Part shown: positions 6,667 through 35,167 of the stretch, piece by piece
How the letters are laid out: each line of letters opens with the position of its first letter
Numbering within the stretch: the stretch's first letter is position 1
Assembly (NCBI GenBank): GCA_036405895.1
Contig: DASWWS010000002.1
Location: 20,903-84,902 of the forward strand
Direction of reading: 5' to 3'
Origin: Minisyncoccota bacterium
Lineage (GTDB): Bacteria > Patescibacteriota > Minisyncoccia > Phycocordibacterales > UBA9973
DNA length: 64,000 nt
Position numbers and translations under genes: made by a program
The notes under the pieces: generated by a model
Databases searched by the model: none
Told to the model about the DNA's origin: nothing
Seen by the model: only the letters and a program-made list of their open reading frames with translations

Positions 6667-6742
6667 GCCGCTTTAGCTCAGTTGGTAGAGCTACACTTTT
6701 GTAAAGTGAGGGTCGTCAGTTCGAGTCTGACAAGCGGCTCCA
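6667..6742 (+). tRNA. tRNA-Thr (anticodon TGT)
   Basis: hand-folded cloverleaf: acceptor GCCGCTT/AAGCGGC, D-stem GCTC/GAGC, anticodon loop TT-TGT-AA, 5-nt variable loop, T-arm GTCAG-TTCGAGT-CTGAC, encoded CCA; one A27-A43 mismatch. Confidence 0.85.
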
Positions 6743-26067: not shown

Positions 26068-27078
26068 ATGTTCTGGCGTCTCCTTTTAGTTGTTATAGCT
26101 CTTGGAGTGAGCACGATTGTGTTTTCTTTTGCGTACCCGCTGACGCCCGGCACTGGTATGCGCAGCAAACTTACCCAACAAGAATTTCCCAATGACATTA
26201 TAGTGGGGTGGGTTGGCGACATGGTGCCAAGCCGGGACAGTACGTACAACCATGCAGTGCTTTCTTTTGTCGCACCGGCGCTCGTTGCGCCTGACCTCAT
26301 GATCGGCAACCTCGAAGGCACCTTTGCCGCTGAGAACCGATCAAGCAAGTGCATCTACCTCCTGAACCGCTGCCATGCATTTCGCGGAGACGCGTCATTT
26401 GCGGAAGGATTGAAAACTGCGGGCTTTGATTTTGTAAGTCTTGTGAACAACCACTCATACGACTACGGCGAGATGGGGCTTGCCGATACTACTGCTGTCC
26501 TTGATGCCGCTGGCATCCCCTATGTCGCACCAAACAAGCCCTTTACTAGTATTACAGTGAAAGGAAAGCGTATTGGCATCCTCGGCCTTTCCAGCACCGA
26601 GCCAACGCGCACCATCACCGACTATGATTTTATAAAAAATACCGTTGCAAAACTAAAGCAAGAAAATGATTTCGTCATCGTCATCTTCCACGGAGGAAAC
26701 GAAGGGTCTGACAAAACAGCGGTACCGGGTGTGAACGAATACATGGGTACTGAAGACCGCGGCAACGTCCAGCTGGTGGCATACACTGCAATTGATGCAG
26801 GTGCAGACCTCGTGCTTGGCTCAGGCCCGCATGTCTTGCGCAAAATAGAAACATATAAGGGCAAGAAAATTGCGTACTCGCTTGGCAACTTTGTCGGCGG
26901 CAACGGAAGCCTTGTCACCAGTGGCACGCTTGGCCTCTCCGGCATTTTCACTTCCACACTCTCGTACGACCACAGCCCCGACCCAACATTCACCTCCGTC
27001 ATCCTCACCAAAAACGGCACACCGACACTCGACCCATTGAACCGCGGCAAAGACCTCATTGAGCAATTGTCGCAATAG
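26068..27078 (+). CDS. CapA/PgsA-family metallophosphatase-like protein (membrane-anchored)
   Basis: N-terminal TM; GDxxxxR, VNNHSYDYG (NNH), FHGGNEG motifs characteristic of the CapA family. Confidence 0.7.
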   Translation: MFWRLLLVVIALGVSTIVFSFAYPLTPGTGMRSKLTQQEFPNDIIVGWVGDMVPSRDSTYNHAVLSFVAPALVAPDLMIGNLEGTFAAENRSSKCIYLLNRCHAFRGDASFAEGLKTAGFDFVSLVNNHSYDYGEMGLADTTAVLDAAGIPYVAPNKPFTSITVKGKRIGILGLSSTEPTRTITDYDFIKNTVAKLKQENDFVIVIFHGGNEGSDKTAVPGVNEYMGTEDRGNVQLVAYTAIDAGADLVLGSGPHVLRKIETYKGKKIAYSLGNFVGGNGSLVTSGTLGLSGIFTSTLSYDHSPDPTFTSVILTKNGTPTLDPLNRGKDLIEQLSQ

Positions 27079-27079
27079 A

Positions 27080-27108
27080 AAAAGCCGTATCAATTGATAC
27101 GGCTTTTA
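27080..27108. terminator. bidirectional rho-independent terminator
   Basis: aaaagccgtatcaattgatacggctttt between convergent capA-like and 27113..27523 genes. Confidence 0.7.
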
Positions 27109-27112
27109 TTTG

Positions 27113-27523
27113 CTATCGCGGGCACAGCAGGCGTTGCCATTCCTCGGGTGAAATGCCCGGCCGTCTGATGCGCCGAGAGGAGTACACAGGGTATGAGCTT
27201 CTTGTTACAGCCCTCCTTGAAACAGTTGCTGTCCGGGGGCGATTTCTGCTTTGTTCAAGCAATAGCGCAAGCGAGTCGCGCTCCATATAAAGCCGCGTCA
27301 CTTCTGCTCGAGCATAGGCAAGCGCTTCTTTAAGCTCCTCAACTTCCCTATTTCGATTTTTGGGAATGGTGATTTCAACAAGCGGCTTTTTTATCTTTGC
27401 CACCGTCGGCTCCGAAAGCTCTCGCTTGCGAACGCCCCAGTACCATACTCCCCATACAATTACTGCTGCTAGTGCGAGCAGTGCAATAAACTTCAAAAAT
27501 CCTTTTGCTGATCCGTTTGCCAT
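27113..27523 (-). CDS. hypothetical membrane-anchored coiled-coil protein
   Basis: 136 aa; TM near N-terminus, Arg-rich C-terminus; no family assignment. Confidence 0.4.
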   Translation of the reverse strand: MANGSAKGFLKFIALLALAAVIVWGVWYWGVRKRELSEPTVAKIKKPLVEITIPKNRNREVEELKEALAYARAEVTRLYMERDSLALLLEQSRNRPRTATVSRRAVTRSSYPVYSSRRIRRPGISPEEWQRLLCPR

Positions 27524-27760
27524 ATTCAGTTGTATTAAGTGAACGATTGCTTCTTGGCGGTATAATGCCGATATCTATCCCCGAAGTCAATAAAAATAGT
27601 CGTACCACCACTTGGGTGATACGACCGGTTTTCTCTCGCCTGTCGGCAAGAAAAATGGGCAGATTAGCTTTTTTCTGATGCGAGCTGTCTCATAGCGTAT
27701 TTCCCTCAGTGTACTCCTCTGTCACTAAAGTGCAAATAAAAAAAATAAACTAGATATGTC

Positions 27761-28282
27761 TTACATTGACGGCAGACCAAGACGATTTAATGTAATTCCT
27801 TCAAATTCATAATCGCACTCAACTTCTTTAATATAAGCGAGTACGTCTTTATATGCGGGAGCTTGGAACCATTCACTTAGGATATAAATATATTCAACTT
27901 GAACACCGAGTGCATTTAAAAGTTTTTCATACTGTCGTTTCTTAAAATGACAAGTTTGTAATTTCTCATCTACTGATCCAGCAACATTCTGGAACTTAAT
28001 TTCAATCACAAAAAATGTATTTGTATTTAATACTAAAATAGCATCATCAGGAAGAAGTTTTTTGGAGAGAATTTCCCTATGATTTATACCTTTTCTTTCA
28101 AGAAATTTATATAAGGTGTTTTTTCGAAGATTAAGAGCAACTACTTCTCCATTAAATAAAATAGAGCCATCATCCTTAACCTCATAACCCGGCATCGTCT
28201 TAAGAACAGTAAGAAAATCAACCCTACCTTCAAAATGCATTCCAGATTTTGTATTTCCGCCCCCAACACCACCAAGCTTCAT
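27761..28282 (-). CDS. short PD-(D/E)xK nuclease, likely N-terminally truncated DpnII/MboI-family (GATC) restriction endonuclease
   Basis: 173 aa; LPDDAILVLNTNTFFVIEIKFQNVAGSVDEKL resembles DpnII catalytic block FDFVIKNEQGELYLIEVNFYSGSGSKLNE (recalled from memory); N-terminus GGVGGGNTKSG resembles DpnII mid-region DTNGRKNRTG; full-length family members are about 280-290 aa. Confidence 0.5.
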   Translation of the reverse strand: MKLGGVGGGNTKSGMHFEGRVDFLTVLKTMPGYEVKDDGSILFNGEVVALNLRKNTLYKFLERKGINHREILSKKLLPDDAILVLNTNTFFVIEIKFQNVAGSVDEKLQTCHFKKRQYEKLLNALGVQVEYIYILSEWFQAPAYKDVLAYIKEVECDYEFEGITLNRLGLPSM

Positions 28283-28361
28283 ATCGATCAGATTACCATT
28301 TAAGGCTTCTCTGTCAATAAATTCACTTACCTAGGAATCTAAGGGTGCAACTGATAAAATC

Positions 28362-29210
28362 ATGTTTATGAAAGTGACGAGAAAAGTAAAGCCATTTCTT
28401 AAATGGGTTGGGGGCAAGGGCCAATTACTGGAGCAATTCGAAAATATTTATCCAAAGAAATTCAATACATATTACGAACCTTTTATTGGTGGGGGTGCTG
28501 TTTTCTTTTCTATTAACCCTAAGAAGGGTGTTATTAATGACATTAATCAAACTCTAGTTAATACATACAAGAATATTAAAAATCAGCCCGAAAAGTTAAT
28601 CAGGTCCCTTAAAAAAATTGAGAAAGATTTTATAGCTAAAAATGAGGATGATCGTAAGGAGTATTATTATTTAATTCGAGATAAATATAATCGGCTTTCT
28701 TCTGAAGATTTCAACCGTAGCGTCTACTTTCTATTTTTAAATAAGACAGCCTTTAATGGTGTGTACCGAGAAAATTCAAAAGGAGGTTTTAACGTGCCGA
28801 TAGGCAGCTATAAAAATCCTAAAATTGTTGATGAAGAAAATATATTAGCAATCTCAAACACATTAAAGAATACGAAAATTACGTGCTCCTCTTTTGTTGA
28901 TGCGGTAAAAAATGCAAAGTCAGGAGATTTTGTATATTTTGATCCCCCCTATTACCCCTTATCTAAAACTTCGCAATTCACTAGCTATAGTAAAGATTCA
29001 TTTTCAGAAGAAGATCAAATTAAACTTCGCGATCTATTTGTTCAGTTAGATAAAAAAGGTGTTTACGTGATGCTCAGTAATTCAAGCGCCTCTTTTATAA
29101 AGAAAATCTATGCTGGATATACCCAAATCCCTGTATATGCTAATCGCATGATTAATTCAAAGTCAGATAGGCGAGGAAAGATATCAGAAGTAGTTATTAT
29201 TAATTATTAA
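28362..29210 (+). CDS. Dam-family (alpha-class) N6-adenine DNA methyltransferase, probable GATC specificity (DpnM/M.MboIA-like)
   Basis: KPFLKWVGGKGQLL, EPFIGGGAVFF (motif I), NGVYRENSKGGFNVPIGSY, FVYFDPPYYPL (motif IV), FTSYSKDSF - near-diagnostic Dam signature. Confidence 0.9.
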   Translation: MFMKVTRKVKPFLKWVGGKGQLLEQFENIYPKKFNTYYEPFIGGGAVFFSINPKKGVINDINQTLVNTYKNIKNQPEKLIRSLKKIEKDFIAKNEDDRKEYYYLIRDKYNRLSSEDFNRSVYFLFLNKTAFNGVYRENSKGGFNVPIGSYKNPKIVDEENILAISNTLKNTKITCSSFVDAVKNAKSGDFVYFDPPYYPLSKTSQFTSYSKDSFSEEDQIKLRDLFVQLDKKGVYVMLSNSSASFIKKIYAGYTQIPVYANRMINSKSDRRGKISEVVIINY

Positions 29211-30021
29211 GTTTTATAAGATCTTCAAAACGTTTTCGAGAAAGTTCTAGATATTTTTTCTCCATATCAATACCAATAAATTTCCTTCCATGTTTTTTTG
29301 CAGCAATCCCAGTTGTTGAGCTTCCTGTAAAAGGGTCAAGAACAACGTCCCCCTTATTTGTACTTGCTAATATAATCCTCTCTAAAAGAGATAATGGTTT
29401 TTGAGTTGGGTGTTTGGTAAATTTTTTTTCTTCTTTTTTAGGAGGATGAACTGCCCATACTGAACGCATTTGAAGATTAGGTTTTTTAATAAAATCTTCA
29501 GACCATTCGCCATTTTTCATCAAATCATAATTGAATATATGTTTTGCTTTTTTATCTTTGCGAGCCCATAAAATAGTTTCATGACTTGCAGTAAAAAACC
29601 TACAACTAAGATTAGGTGCTGCATTTGGTTTAAACCAAGATATGTCATTAAGCATATGAAATCCAATTGACTGGATAGCATGCCCACATTGATAAATAGA
29701 ATGATACGTACCACTAACCCAAATGGTGCCATGCGGCTTAAGAACACGATGGCATGCATTGAGCCATTTTTCGTGGAAGGCATAATCGCTGGCAAAACCC
29801 TTACTCTTATCCCATTCCCCCTTATTAACACTCACCATCTTTCCTGCATGGACTGTAAAACCATTATTTGAAAGCATATATGGAGGGTCAGCAAAAATCA
29901 TATCAATTGAATCTTCAGGGAGTGAATTCAAAAGTTCTACGCAGTCACTCAGGTAAAGAACGAAGTCTTTACCTGAGTAATGTGGCTTATTTTTAACATT
30001 TCTAAGTATTCTCTCAGGCAT
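29200..30021 (-). CDS. beta-class N6-adenine (or N4-cytosine) DNA methyltransferase, DpnA/M.MboIC-like second methylase
   Basis: IFADPPYM (motif IV) near N-terminus then VLDPFTGSSTTGIAA (motif I) near C-terminus = beta permutation; long collinear similarity to DpnA as recalled (KHPTQKP..LERIILAST). Confidence 0.85.
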   Translation of the reverse strand: MPERILRNVKNKPHYSGKDFVLYLSDCVELLNSLPEDSIDMIFADPPYMLSNNGFTVHAGKMVSVNKGEWDKSKGFASDYAFHEKWLNACHRVLKPHGTIWVSGTYHSIYQCGHAIQSIGFHMLNDISWFKPNAAPNLSCRFFTASHETILWARKDKKAKHIFNYDLMKNGEWSEDFIKKPNLQMRSVWAVHPPKKEEKKFTKHPTQKPLSLLERIILASTNKGDVVLDPFTGSSTTGIAAKKHGRKFIGIDMEKKYLELSRKRFEDLIKLNN

Positions 30022-30166
30022 TACGTATAGTTTAACTTATTAAAATGAACTTAACATAAAAAATTGTTAAATTATATATAAATTACCCATAAGATCCACA
30101 ATTTATACTAACCCGCACAGGACACAAAAGCCTCTTTAAGTAGAAGTTTTTGTTATAATAATAGAA

Positions 30167-31348
30167 GTGATTAGACTATTAAAAAACGATGACAAGCTTA
30201 TTTTAAGTTACTCTACAGATAATCCATGGTTTCGTGACCGACTACGAAATGGACAAGATATTTCTCTTAAAAAGAGAGCATTTATCCTATCAAAAAATGA
30301 TATTTCTAAACAAGATATTGATGATGATGGCGCTGATGTAGAATTTATTCTTGGAAATTTAATTGAGGGTCAATATTTTAAAATTGAAGGTAGAAAACTA
30401 GGGATTAATCAGGATGTGTACATAGACAAAAATGTAGAAATAACAGAAAGTTTCTTTCTTGGAGTAAGAGACATCCCCATATTTCAAAAAATTAGTAGGG
30501 TAGTAAATGAAGACATTTATATTGGAGGTAAACTAGAGGAGTCTATACCCCTGGAGGAATTTGAACAGTTACTTAAGAATTTTCCAAATTCCTATGAAAT
30601 TGCAAAATATCTGGACGCTCGTCTCGCTTCTGTATTAAGTAACTATTTCGATTCTTCATCAAATGTAGAAGCGAAATATCAGCGCTACATGAACAAAAAA
30701 CAAAGTATCAAAGGCGAGGATTTACCTGAACTTTTTAAAGAGAGAGAAATAGTCAAGTACGAAACAATTCTCGAAAAACTCGAACTGATGCTTTTAAATC
30801 AAAATAAATATAACGAAAAACAGTGGCAGAAAGAAATACTCGAAATAATTCTACTTTTGTATCCTAAATATATTTACGCATTTGAAGAAGCCCCTATTCG
30901 GGATCAGTATCAAAGTAAGGATAGAAAGATTGATTTCCTACTCATTGATGCTAACGGAAACACGGACATTATTGAAATCAAGCGACCATTAAACGAAAGG
31001 ATTATCACAAAAGGACGGTATCGTGATAATTACATACCACTAAGAGAGTTATCTGGAACAGTGATGCAGATTGAAAAGTATATATATCATCTTAATAAAT
31101 CTGGGCAGACTGGCGAGAATAGATTGACCACGAAGTATAAGAGTAAGCTACCTGCTGATTTCAAAATAAAGATTACCAATCCTGGTGGAATGATTATCAT
31201 GGGAAGAGACAATCTTCTTTCTCGTGATCAAATGGAAGATTTTGAAGTGGTAAAGAGAAAATACAAAAATGTAATTGATATCATTACCTATGACGATCTC
31301 ATAAGAAGACTGAAATCTATTATTACAGCTTGGAAAAATAGAGCTTAA
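30167..31348 (+). CDS. Shedu-like defense nuclease (DUF4263 PD-(D/E)xK domain at C-terminus), GTG start
   Basis: 393 aa; C-terminal block KIDFLLIDANGNTDIIEIKRP (D...ExK) followed by VMQIEKYIYHL (Q..Y) as in DUF4263/SduA; N-terminal about 230 aa unassigned. Confidence 0.6.
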   Translation: MIRLLKNDDKLILSYSTDNPWFRDRLRNGQDISLKKRAFILSKNDISKQDIDDDGADVEFILGNLIEGQYFKIEGRKLGINQDVYIDKNVEITESFFLGVRDIPIFQKISRVVNEDIYIGGKLEESIPLEEFEQLLKNFPNSYEIAKYLDARLASVLSNYFDSSSNVEAKYQRYMNKKQSIKGEDLPELFKEREIVKYETILEKLELMLLNQNKYNEKQWQKEILEIILLLYPKYIYAFEEAPIRDQYQSKDRKIDFLLIDANGNTDIIEIKRPLNERIITKGRYRDNYIPLRELSGTVMQIEKYIYHLNKSGQTGENRLTTKYKSKLPADFKIKITNPGGMIIMGRDNLLSRDQMEDFEVVKRKYKNVIDIITYDDLIRRLKSIITAWKNRA

Positions 31349-31353
31349 ACTTA

Positions 31354-33285
31354 CTACAGGACAATAATTTCCCACTGATTTTGATCTATATCACTAAGAT
31401 TAGCAGTATACCTATCATTATGGATAGCAACACAAAGAAGATGCGTTGGTCGAGATAATCCAACATACATCATTTTTGTAGACTCTTTATGGTAAATTCG
31501 AGCGTCGTTAAATACCGTACCCTTGAATTGTGGACTTAACCTTTGTGACTCGTATGCAATAGTTCTTTGTTGGTGGTAATTTGTTTCAAGATAAAGAGTT
31601 GCTGTATGTGTTTGACCCTTAACTGAGTGAATAGTTGCAACTTCAACTTTGATACCGTCGCCATTATAAATATTTGGAGACTCTTCCACCTCAGTATTAT
31701 AAATTGGTGTTCCAGCATGAGGAGTATCAATAAATGTCCTGCTTTCCGCTATCTCTTTGCCAAACAAGGCAAGTAGGCTGACTAAATAGGTCTTTATATC
31801 AGTAAGAACCTGATCCTTTTGTCCTTTGATAAGCCTAAAACTCCACTCAGCTAATTTTAGCTTAAAAGAATCGTATACCTCCTCATCTTGCTCACTTAGA
31901 AAGCTTAGAAACTTTTGTCGTGTATAAAATCTATCATTCTCGTCAACAATATTTTCCAAACGTAATATTCTTATAATAGCGTTAATTATATTTTTCTTAA
32001 AAGGCTCAAAAGTTTTTTCCCCAGCCTTTATATTAGAGAGATAGGCCTCAAGGCAGTCACAGTCTATTTTGGGTTGTCTTGCATCTTTAGAAAAAGTTGG
32101 GTGGTAATCACCGATTCTGGTTTTATTTGCTTCAACTTTAGTATTCCAACCGATAGCTCTATATTTATTTTTTGGAGAGTTAGTTATCTTCCCCTCATCT
32201 TGGAAAGCCTTAATCATTTCTGCAAATCTTGATATAACTTGAGAAATATTTGCATCCGTATAAACAATTATATGAGGTTTAATATCTATCTCAGATCCAT
32301 CACCATTCTTCATATGCCCAACAATGGCTATATTTTGTAGACCAAAAGGTACAACAACCTGTGCGATCTTAGGATTAAGGCGGTGGCTACCATTCAACTC
32401 TAAGACGGTAGGTCTATCAACCCATTGAGTATTCGCTTTAGCGGAATCGCTAAAAATTGATTGATTCTTGTCTCCGATTCGTTGATAGACTGACTCACTA
32501 GCACCTTCGCTGTAAAAAAGTTTTTCTAGGATATCATATTGAAGAGAGTCCATATCTTGAACCTCATCAACAAACACAAAGCGGAATCTTTTCTGCAAAA
32601 GAGTTTTAATTTGAGGATATTTATCAATCGCCTCAAATGCCAAAATAAATGCGTCCTCAAAACTGAGATAGCCTTTTTCTCTGAGTTGCTTTTTAAGAGC
32701 CAGGATTGCAACAGCTGTAGCATTGGTAGTATCTGCAAAAGTAGGAACGGGTGGATATCCGCTTGCGAGCAAGTCATTTGGATGTAGCTTGATATTAAAC
32801 AGCTTAGACTCATCACTTGTTCCAAATTGATGACCTAGCCATGCCCTTGCGGGTCCAGGCACATATTGTGACTGATAATAAGATTGATCGTCGATACGAA
32901 AAACTTTCTTTCCATATTTATTCACATAAAAAGGCGTTGCGATAAATTTATCAACAAATATCTGGATTGTTCCAACAAAGTTTGGGTAACTGAACAAATG
33001 TGAACAATATTTGCCAATCTTGTCTTTGATTTCGTCAATCGCAGCGTTCGTATGAGAAATGACTAAAATACCTGAGCCATCAGCAAAAGGTAGGTATCTA
33101 TCAAGTATTAAAAGCTTTGCTAGGAGTGCCGTTGTCTTTCCACTACCAGGAACAGCTTGTAGATCTAGAATCTCAAGATTGGTGATAAAATCACGTCGCT
33201 CCTGATCAAAATGTTGTCCATCTGGAAGCAGTATTGATTCAGCATAAGCAATATCATCTTCCGTAACATTAAGAGTTTGAGGCAT
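31354..33285 (-). CDS. gajB: Gabija GajB-like UvrD/PcrA-type superfamily-1 helicase
   Basis: 643 aa; Walker A AVPGSGKTTALLAK, motif II FVFVDEVQD; overlaps gajA-like gene by 17 nt. Confidence 0.75.
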   Translation of the reverse strand: MPQTLNVTEDDIAYAESILLPDGQHFDQERRDFITNLEILDLQAVPGSGKTTALLAKLLILDRYLPFADGSGILVISHTNAAIDEIKDKIGKYCSHLFSYPNFVGTIQIFVDKFIATPFYVNKYGKKVFRIDDQSYYQSQYVPGPARAWLGHQFGTSDESKLFNIKLHPNDLLASGYPPVPTFADTTNATAVAILALKKQLREKGYLSFEDAFILAFEAIDKYPQIKTLLQKRFRFVFVDEVQDMDSLQYDILEKLFYSEGASESVYQRIGDKNQSIFSDSAKANTQWVDRPTVLELNGSHRLNPKIAQVVVPFGLQNIAIVGHMKNGDGSEIDIKPHIIVYTDANISQVISRFAEMIKAFQDEGKITNSPKNKYRAIGWNTKVEANKTRIGDYHPTFSKDARQPKIDCDCLEAYLSNIKAGEKTFEPFKKNIINAIIRILRLENIVDENDRFYTRQKFLSFLSEQDEEVYDSFKLKLAEWSFRLIKGQKDQVLTDIKTYLVSLLALFGKEIAESRTFIDTPHAGTPIYNTEVEESPNIYNGDGIKVEVATIHSVKGQTHTATLYLETNYHQQRTIAYESQRLSPQFKGTVFNDARIYHKESTKMMYVGLSRPTHLLCVAIHNDRYTANLSDIDQNQWEIIVL

Positions 33286-35098
33286 AACGTATTGCTTTTA
33301 TTAAGTAGCTTATAGTGTCAGCTTCATCGTCCTTATTAATAGTGACTAACGATGTAGTGTTTTGAAAATTCTTATCTAAAAGATTAGCAAGCTTATAGGC
33401 GATTTCTGTTTTCTTTAAGCCTTTATTGATCAACTTTTCGGCTAGTGATTTTTCAAAATCATCAGTCCAATTTGTTCCTGTATGAATAGCCTCAACAACC
33501 ATTTTAAAACTATCAGATAGACAACTCGAGTTTAGAAGTGAGTATTCTAAGGTCCACTGTGGAGCAACAAAGAATTTTACATTCTCTTCTGATCTAGCCT
33601 CTATAGTAGGAATTTTAGCTATTGTTTCTGCCTCTACCGTAGCTGTATCAATCTTTGCAAACTCATATTGATTTTTCCCCGCTACCTTAACTGGCTTACC
33701 ATCGCCGTCTAACACCAAATCTTTCTGGTATCTTGGCACGTCTACATCAGTCACAACAGCAACAGGGATATTCATCGGACTACCACTTTGTCTCAAAAAG
33801 ATATTCGTATAATTTGAAAATCCTAGATTCCCAATATTAATAACGGTGACACCTTTTTCTGTTAAATCGATACCCATCTTTTTTGCAATACTCGGTATCA
33901 AAATCTCTTCTGCCCACCCCTCTACCAAAATGACACCTTTGGCAAAAAATAAATTTGCTTTTGTTGTATCAAGAAACTTTTCTAAAAAAACGTATTCTTT
34001 TTGATCGAGCTTTGTATATTCTGAACCCATTGGAAAAGCAGCGCCGTCTTTGCAAACTATTAGATGTTTAAGTTTTACCTTAGAAGCGAGATTGGGGCTG
34101 TGAGTAGTCAGTATAAGCTGAATATCCTTTTGAGCCTGAAGTACCTCTATAACCTGCATTTGAGCCTGAGGATGCAAATGTGCCTCTAACTCTTCAATTA
34201 AGCCAAGTCGTAAGCCATTCCAATTTGGTTTATTCAGGTGAAGTAACTCTGACGACATAAACAACTTGTTCAATGTTCCTAAGCCTGGGTTAATTACGCC
34301 CTTGAGCGAAAGCTCCAGTCTTTCAAGAATATTTTTCAGTTTTCCGTCATTAACTGTAAAAACAGATTCACGATCTGGGTGATAAAAAGACTGAATGTAC
34401 TTATCTATTTCATTTTTCAAATCCTGTCCTTTTAGATCACCAATAGCGACATCATCAGTGTCTTTTCCTTCAAAATATTTTTCAATCGAAGTATTAAAGT
34501 GTTTGAATATTTCAATTAGAAGGTGGTCATCTTTCTTGCCTTTAAAAGCATCATGTCCCTGAAGAATCTGGGACAATCGAGAGTTCTTTTTTGGAACCAA
34601 TTCTGATTCAGCATCTCGCAATGGTCGTAGATAAGTACTCTTCAAATAATCTCTGGCTTCTGCGTTTAGGGTAACCCCTTCTGTATCTACACCAGCTTTT
34701 ATGTCATAAGGAAATACCTGCTCTGATCCAGCACTTCTTTTTACATCCAATATTAATCTAAGAAAGCATTGTGCATCTTCTCCTTCACCGGTCCAACCGA
34801 GCCAATCAATAAAGTTCTTTGCTTCCTGAAGATTTAAATCAATGAACATTAGCTCAATCCTAAAACGAGAACTATTACCGAAGAAGTCATCTTGTTCTGC
34901 TCGAATCCAGTCAAAACTGTGAGTCTTAAGTGTAAGTTTTATAGCGTCTATAATTGCTGATTTTCCTGAATCATTCTCACCGATAAGAACATTCAATCCC
35001 TTGGTGAGGTTAAGGTCTAAATCTGGAGAATCAAGATTGAAATCAGTTGGTTTTCCATATTTTCTAAAATTCCATAACTTGATATTTGCTAGATACAT
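33269..35098 (-). CDS. gajA: Gabija GajA-like OLD-family nuclease (ABC ATPase + TOPRIM)
   Basis: 609 aa; Walker A LIGENDSGKS, ABC signature/D-loop IEELEAHLHP, H-loop LILTTHSP, TOPRIM glutamate VILVEGWAEE and DxD VVTDVDV. Confidence 0.8.
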   Translation of the reverse strand: MYLANIKLWNFRKYGKPTDFNLDSPDLDLNLTKGLNVLIGENDSGKSAIIDAIKLTLKTHSFDWIRAEQDDFFGNSSRFRIELMFIDLNLQEAKNFIDWLGWTGEGEDAQCFLRLILDVKRSAGSEQVFPYDIKAGVDTEGVTLNAEARDYLKSTYLRPLRDAESELVPKKNSRLSQILQGHDAFKGKKDDHLLIEIFKHFNTSIEKYFEGKDTDDVAIGDLKGQDLKNEIDKYIQSFYHPDRESVFTVNDGKLKNILERLELSLKGVINPGLGTLNKLFMSSELLHLNKPNWNGLRLGLIEELEAHLHPQAQMQVIEVLQAQKDIQLILTTHSPNLASKVKLKHLIVCKDGAAFPMGSEYTKLDQKEYVFLEKFLDTTKANLFFAKGVILVEGWAEEILIPSIAKKMGIDLTEKGVTVINIGNLGFSNYTNIFLRQSGSPMNIPVAVVTDVDVPRYQKDLVLDGDGKPVKVAGKNQYEFAKIDTATVEAETIAKIPTIEARSEENVKFFVAPQWTLEYSLLNSSCLSDSFKMVVEAIHTGTNWTDDFEKSLAEKLINKGLKKTEIAYKLANLLDKNFQNTTSLVTINKDDEADTISYLIKAIRYASNS

Positions 35099-35167
35099 GA
35101 TGGGCTGATTCTAGCATTTTCAGAGATGTTTTTGAAATAAAAAATGTCTTAAAATAAATTTCATGTC

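Follow-up and report, generated by a model that had tools for sequence, protein, structure and literature searches.

An EcSduA-type Shedu nuclease convergent with Gabija in a defence island of Candidatus Paceibacterota

RESULTS

Gene content of the island

The window, by which we mean the whole 64,000-nucleotide stretch of DNA that was analysed, contains a compact, horizontally acquired defence island. The composition profile delimits it as a low-GC region with six defence genes (27700..35100), in which the GC content is 0.31-0.38 compared with ~0.49 in the flanks. The island covers 7.4 kb between a PGA_cap gene and a 136-aa ORF at one end and groEL at the other, and its flanks consist of the housekeeping genes for RNase R, the PGA_cap protein and groES/groEL. 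The same gene order, with an identical and intact SduA, recurs on 8 public contigs (runs SRR11449180-88). No integrase, tRNA or bounding repeats were seen at the island (27700-35100), and a search for direct and inverted repeats at the island boundaries or on either side of sduA, the latter as traces of an inversion, returned only short matches at chance level. An Rfam search of the whole window found one tRNA, at 6667-6739, and none near sduA.

Three genes at the left of the island form a module resembling a restriction-modification system by their Pfam matches (27761..30021). A D12-class N6-adenine methyltransferase (28362-29210, forward strand; Pfam MethyltransfD12, E 7e-68) is followed by an N6/N4 methyltransferase on the reverse strand (29200-30021; Pfam N6_N4_Mtase, E 4e-63). 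They are preceded by a 173-aa PD-(D/E)xK-like ORF (27761-28282, reverse strand), which carries a P-D...E-I-K motif and a sub-threshold match to PDDEXK_11 (E 7e-4). This ORF has no NCBIfam or PDB match and may encode a small, uncharacterised restriction endonuclease. It is hypothetical in GenBank, and its cluster at 90% identity has a single member.

The sduA coding sequence follows on the forward strand (30167..31348) and encodes 393 aa between a GTG start and a TAA stop according to the ORF list. On the reverse strand lie the two Gabija genes: gajB (31354..33285), encoding a UvrD-like helicase of 643 aa (PADLOC GajB PDLC00146, E 1.3e-233; Pfam UvrD-helicase), and gajA (33269..35098), encoding an OLD-family ATPase-TOPRIM nuclease of 609 aa (PADLOC GajA PDLC00099, E 8e-223; Pfam AAA_15 and OLD-like_TOPRIM). 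In transcriptional order gajA precedes gajB with an overlap of 17 nt, the arrangement by which Gabija is recognised. The window GajB is identical to a protein of the same GenBank metagenome-assembled genome (MAG) that holds the window SduA. The island thus equips a CPR bacterium with three stacked DNA-targeting defences: the restriction-modification module, Shedu and Gabija.

A perfect palindrome of 14+14 nt (AAAAGCCGTATCAA/TTGATACGGCTTTT, 27080-27107) is located at the island's left edge, between the PGA_cap gene, which ends at 27078, and the convergent 136-aa ORF (27113-27523, reverse strand). It is probably a bidirectional terminator.

The junction between sduA and gajB

The stop codons of the convergent sduA and gajB genes are separated in the ORF list by an intergenic gap of 5 nt, ACTTA (31349..31353). 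The sequence-only reading that preceded this work had noted both the convergent arrangement with its 5-nt gap and the lack of a terminator, and our results agree with it on each point. A terminator scan of 29800-31800 gave no terminator-like site, and RNA of the junction (31290-31420) folds no better than shuffled sequences (z = +0.9), with no significant hairpin. The 5-nt convergent junction is real and is in itself unremarkable.

Start codon and upstream region of sduA

The GTG assigned as the start of sduA on first inspection is borne out by the protein data, as the homologues and the GenBank product share the same N-terminus. GenBank entry HEY0980203.1, named "Shedu immune nuclease family protein" and derived from a Candidatus Paceibacterota MAG (contig up to 276 kb), is the identical 393-aa product with the same start. 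Among the homologues, 37 align with SduA from residue 1 and display a conserved N-terminal M-I/L, and the Gabija-linked loci with mapped ORFs have an ATG exactly at the position aligned to query residue 1. Within the first 174 codons of sduA, the only canonical start codons are GTG1 and GTG84. Translation of 29999-30199 and a frame check placed the first in-frame upstream stop, a TAA, at 30137..30139 on the forward strand, and the frame check found no canonical start codon between this TAA and the GTG. The earlier proposal that no upstream start exists therefore stands, but the stop codons cited for it do not, since the TAA, TAA and TAG at 30156-30164 fall in a different reading frame.

A perfect extended -10-like element, TGTTATAAT, could be read from the sequence at 30151..30159 on the forward strand, where it ends 7 nt before the GTG of sduA. 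A promoter scan based on two hexamers did not list this element because a -35 match is absent. The interval between TGTTATAAT and the GTG leaves no room for a Shine-Dalgarno sequence. This spacing suggests that the sduA mRNA is leaderless or near-leaderless, possibly beginning with the GTG itself.

SduA belongs to the EcSduA subfamily of type I Shedu proteins

The protein had been proposed to be a Shedu SduA with a PD-(D/E)xK domain of the DUF4263 family and an intact D/E/K triad, and this proposal is upheld by the Pfam match and by the alignment to SduA of E. coli KTE10 (EcSduA), in which the D/E/K residues are aligned. The Pfam model PF14082 (SduA_C, formerly DUF4263) matched residues 215-379 over model positions 2-159 of 159, with E 7.4e-37 and a score of 127.4 bits against a gathering cut-off of 27. 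The PADLOC SduA model PDLC00388 covered the entire protein (E 1.5e-144; residues 1-392 on model positions 1-399 of 402), and PDLC04067, the second SduA model, likewise matched over the full length. An NCBIfam search with SduA gave no match.

Comparison with known structures led to the same family. In a single-sequence phmmer search of the PDB, the top match was the "Shedu effector protein" of 8PS4/8PS5 (E 5.5e-81). These entries are the apo and DNA-bound structures of EcSduA, respectively, for which the N-terminal domain has also been described separately as 8PS6 (Loeff, Walter, Rosalen and Jinek, 10.1101/2023.08.10.552762). A profile made from an alignment of 38 family sequences (A1) extended the match to 8PS4 over nearly the whole chain (E 5.6e-123; query 1-390 on chain residues 4-410). 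The AF2 model of the SduA monomer, built on the 38-sequence alignment, has a mean pLDDT of 86 and a pTM of 0.54. With this model, Foldseek retrieved 8PS5_A (E 6e-38) and 8PS4_A (E 1.6e-36) as the best folds, over ~410 columns with 37-38% identity. Superposed on the chains of the EcSduA tetramer, the predicted monomer gives a modest global TM of 0.53 with an rmsd of ~15 A, because its domains are oriented differently towards each other, and not because the fold differs.

At E <= 1e-5, the homology search yielded 1,368 homologues, of which the best 120 are 49-81% identical to the window protein and nearly all full length (with one 303-aa fragment), mostly of 387-412 aa. Several of them bear the name "Shedu immune nuclease family protein", among them proteins of Candidatus Paceibacterota and Staskawiczbacteria. 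The protein collection clustered at 90% identity lists the window SduA under a representative that is a 57-aa fragment, and for this reason the homology search returned no self-match.

It is virtually certain from these matches that the protein belongs to the EcSduA-type Shedu family. It is an ordinary type I Shedu of the EcSduA subfamily, intact and full length, and the gene is already correctly annotated in public resources, as Pfam, PADLOC and the NCBI annotation all name SduA.

The N-terminal region is homologous to that of EcSduA

Inspection of the letters had described residues 1-230 as acidic and rich in Ile and Lys, which the computed values reproduce (pI 5.0, Ile 10.9%, Lys 10.0%). 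It had further treated the N-terminal 230 aa as an unassigned or hypervariable domain, and this view had to be abandoned. The whole region is homologous to EcSduA and is strongly conserved in more than 100 full-length homologues with 49-81% identity. Nor is it one domain: by homology, it comprises the N-terminal domain, a helical linker and the first helices of the nuclease, which contain E217 and Q221.

EcSduA consists of an N-terminal domain (1-145), a helical linker (146-188) and a nuclease domain (195-408) (Loeff et al., 10.1101/2023.08.10.552762), and the window protein shares this layout of clamp domain, linker and DUF4263 nuclease over its full length. Its N-terminal domain, the homologue of the clamp that binds DNA ends in EcSduA, spans aa 1-138 (30167..30580, forward strand), with the boundary taken from EcSduA 1-145. 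[quoted passage not shown] The α-helical linker, mapped from EcSduA 146-188, spans aa 139-185 (30581..30721, forward strand). In the AF2 model it is predicted as two helices, 146-157 and 162-175, with pLDDT values of 53-75, the lowest-confidence part of the model. The PD-(D/E)xK nuclease domain occupies aa 186-393 (30722..31345, forward strand); it includes the PF14082 match over 215-379 and also aligns with 8TI8/8TI9. We also weighed a novel sensor role for the N-terminal domain and rejected it because of the sequence, profile and fold matches to EcSduA.

The structures 8TI8 and 8TI9 represent the SduA of Bacillus cereus B4264 (BcSduA), a Type 1A Shedu. The resemblance to BcSduA concerns the nuclease core and the helical region preceding it (query 146-389; profile E 3.5e-12), whereas the N-terminal domains are unrelated. 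The sPC4/Whirly-fold N-terminal domain is a feature of the B. cereus class by which Type 1A Shedu proteins are defined, and it is not found here: 8TI8 aligns with residues 146-389 only, and the N-terminus matches 8PS6.

Conservation of catalytic and DNA-contact residues

The EcSduA active site is lined by E226, Q230, D269, E283, K285 and Q314 (10.1101/2023.08.10.552762). The PDB chain carries 3 extra N-terminal residues, so that its Met4 corresponds to Met1 in native numbering and its D272/E286/K288 to D269/E283/K285. With this offset, the active-site residues correspond in the window protein to E217, Q221, D256, E270, K272 and Q301, in the same order, and the alignment to EcSduA places their codons within 30815..31069 on the forward strand. 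The motifs D256-x13-E270-I-K272 and Q301-x3-Y305 were confirmed on the translation exactly where they had been located by eye.

In EcSduA, Trp25 stabilises the bound DNA end (10.1101/2023.08.10.552762). The profile alignment pairs this residue (chain residue 28), whose role in EcSduA is to stack on the DNA end, with W21 of the window protein (codon 30227..30229, forward strand). The DNA-backbone patches of EcSduA are formed by R106/K116, R154/Y181 and Y256/K263 (10.1101/2023.08.10.552762). The residues of patch 1, R106 and K116, align with R101 and R111, respectively, and those of patch 2, R154 and Y181, with K147 and Y174. The patch-3 residue K263 is within a 4-residue insertion that is missing from the window protein. 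No variation is seen at W21, at Y174 or at any of the six active-site residues across the 38 aligned sequences. The present analysis therefore establishes the architecture, the fold and the conservation of the catalytic and end-stacking residues.

EcSduA is thus the best match by sequence and by fold (408 aa, against 393 aa for the window protein), and the two proteins have in common the six active-site residues, the end-stacking Trp and most of the basic residues along the DNA path. They differ in that their identity is only ~38%, the window protein has shorter loops, it lacks the K263 insertion and its acidic loop 48-59 is different. Furthermore, the window gene has a GTG start and its host is represented by a Patescibacteria (CPR) MAG, whereas the host of EcSduA is an enterobacterium.

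Gabija genes upstream of sduA in related loci

Loci with SduA relatives were collected from a one-genome-per-species scan (51 loci) and a metagenome scan (80 loci). The 51 loci of the species scan are distributed over Bacteroidota, Paceibacterota, Brocadia, Smithella, spirochaetes and others. Linkage was assessed by tBLASTn with the window GajA and GajB together with ORF maps, and counted in those loci where SduA was matched over its full length and no less than 4.2 kb of upstream sequence was available, 71 in all. Of these, 20 have gajA-gajB directly before sduA in the same orientation; some of the 20 are near-duplicates. The distance from the gajB stop to the sduA start in these 20 loci is ~4-14 nt, or the genes overlap slightly, as in an operon.

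The 20 cassettes belong to at least four SduA subclades and have differing flanking genes. They employ two Gabija subfamilies, PDLC00099/00146, as in the window, and PDLC00091/00129, whose GajA proteins are ~29% identical. Cassettes were mapped at L017-L020, L024, L025, L027, L028, L030, L033, L049, L052, L107, L110, L111, L129 and L134, with gajA at ~4.1-6.0 kb, gajB at ~6.0-8.0 kb and sduA from 8001 in most of them; those with the second Gabija subfamily are L021, L108, L122 and L125. The named carriers are all Bacteroidota.

The window is the only locus in which Gabija lies downstream of sduA and convergent to it. It resembles the Bacteroidota cassettes (Chryseobacterium culicis L017, Terrimonas L024, Flavobacterium L030/L049 and a Bacteroidia MAG, L021) in having an SduA of the same subfamily, PDLC00388, with 46-51% identity. 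With most of them it also shares the Gabija subfamily (GajA 54-61% and GajB 42-46% identity) and the contiguity of the three genes. Whereas sduA comes after gajB in the same orientation in the Bacteroidota cassettes, it is inverted and convergent in the window, whose SduA belongs to a different SduA clade.

We found no description of the gajA-gajB-sduA linkage in the searchable literature, and no paper dealing with both GajB and DUF4263. Gabija is unmentioned in both Shedu structure papers, and the preprint supplement of Gu et al. contains neither Gabija nor UvrD nor TOPRIM. The idea that this Gabija subtype is obligately linked to Shedu was rejected, because the four closest GajB relatives examined are without sduA.

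DISCUSSION

Our analysis describes a Shedu nuclease of the EcSduA type in a candidate phyla radiation bacterium. The sduA gene very probably encodes a stand-alone type I Shedu nuclease, horizontally acquired in a defence island of Candidatus Paceibacterota and endowed, by homology, with an EcSduA-like mechanism. Previous work demonstrated that EcSduA alone protects E. coli and that the protection is non-abortive, and that defence is abolished by mutating the catalytic residues or Trp25 (10.1101/2023.08.10.552762). Stand-alone action is further supported by the closest SduA relative with a known context, which is 76% identical and has no adjoining Gabija. The recurrent Gabija linkage in other relatives, on the other hand, may mean that SduA does not act entirely alone.

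That the full EcSduA mechanism holds for the window protein is likely, by analogy with its characterised homologue, even though the ~38% identity, the deviating domain orientation of the monomer model and the missing counterpart of K263 weigh against it. In such a mechanism, SduA would form a homotetramer with the nuclease domains as its core. The paired N-terminal domains would act as clamps that are too narrow for continuous B-DNA and admit only the free ends of linear dsDNA, and W21 would stack on the terminal base pair of the bound end. Once an end is bound, the duplex would be positioned over the PD-(D/E)xK site, comprising E217, Q221, D256, E270, K272 and Q301 with Mg2+, so that the 5' strand could be nicked at a fixed distance of ~13-14 nt from the end. 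Linear intermediates of phage replication and recombination would in this way be damaged and fail to propagate, and the circular chromosome would be spared. In all these respects, from the oligomeric state and the specificity for ends to nicking and activity against phages, the proposal is carried over from EcSduA. The phenotypes of Shedu orthologues are host- and phage-specific (Loeff et al., 10.1101/2023.08.10.552762), and the target range is therefore not transferable to the window SduA.

A different mode of regulation has been proposed for B. cereus SduA, in which activation proceeds by tetramer-to-octamer assembly instead of end clamping (Gu et al., 10.1101/2023.08.10.552793). Applied to the window protein, the N-terminal domain would restrain an inactive tetramer until an infection signal brought about a conformational change and octamer formation. 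The nuclease domain does match 8TI8/8TI9 (E ~1e-7 to 1e-12), and removal of the N-terminal domain releases toxicity in both model proteins, EcSduA and BcSduA. However, the similarity to BcSduA is limited to residues 146-389, with an N-terminal domain of the EcSduA kind and not of the sPC4/Whirly type, and the protein retains W21 as well as the basic residues that line the DNA path in the EcSduA mechanism, so that we regard B. cereus-like regulation as very unlikely. The neighbourhood raises another option, namely that sduA serves the adjacent restriction-modification module as an accessory, for instance as a second nuclease controlled by methylation. The gene is divergent from the N6/N4 methyltransferase gene across a spacer of 145 bp, and 602 of 5,499 Shedu genes were found within restriction-modification systems (Gu et al., 10.1101/2023.08.10.552793). 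This association is not seen among the relatives: none of 135 related loci has homologues of the methyltransferases or of the 173-aa ORF beside sduA, except for two distant matches of 26-27% identity (L044 and L130). Moreover, EcSduA binding is neither sequence- nor modification-specific (10.1101/2023.08.10.552762), and we regard an accessory role as extremely improbable.

The relationship with Gabija deserves more attention. SduA might be the third component of a Gabija-Shedu module, in which cuts made by GajA would supply the ends that SduA nicks, or in which each system would, at DNA ends, close the routes of escape from the other. The three genes stand side by side in the window, and the presence of gajA-gajB directly upstream of sduA in 20 of the 71 loci, across at least four SduA subclades and with two Gabija subfamilies, speaks for such a module. 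Published work has both systems acting at DNA ends. In a 2025 preprint, Gabija is described as recognising its targets at protected DNA ends and Shedu is cited as a sensor of ends, which renders Gabija-Shedu cooperation plausible. Yet co-transcription with gajAB is impossible for the window sduA, which is on the opposite strand. Among the nearest GajB relatives examined (80, 57, 54 and 50% identity), none is flanked by sduA, the 76% identical SduA relative mentioned above has no Gabija, and EcSduA defends alone (10.1101/2023.08.10.552762). In addition, the cassette count is inflated by shared Bacteroidota descent and near-duplicate loci, and adjacency in defence islands commonly arises without functional coupling. 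On balance, a role of SduA as the third component of a module seems unlikely to us. The broader proposition, that Gabija and Shedu of the EcSduA type are recurrent functional partners, joined as an operon in Bacteroidota at least twice with different Gabija subfamilies and rearranged into the convergent order seen here, is rather unlikely as well.

Under the preferred reading of a stand-alone nuclease, sduA itself adds one more orthologue of a characterised immune nuclease, and the gajA-gajB-sduA arrangement is the more useful lead. Its frequent operon-like occurrence in relatives suggests cooperation, open to testing, between two systems acting at DNA ends.

Other genes also follow gajB closely elsewhere. 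ORFs begin within 5-14 nt after gajB in L140 (3414-3926, 170 aa), L142 (7949-9271, 440 aa) and L043 (4239-4766, 175 aa). None of the three has a Pfam match, and they are unrelated to the 173-aa ORF of the window or to SduA. These cases hint that Gabija operons often have a variable third gene.
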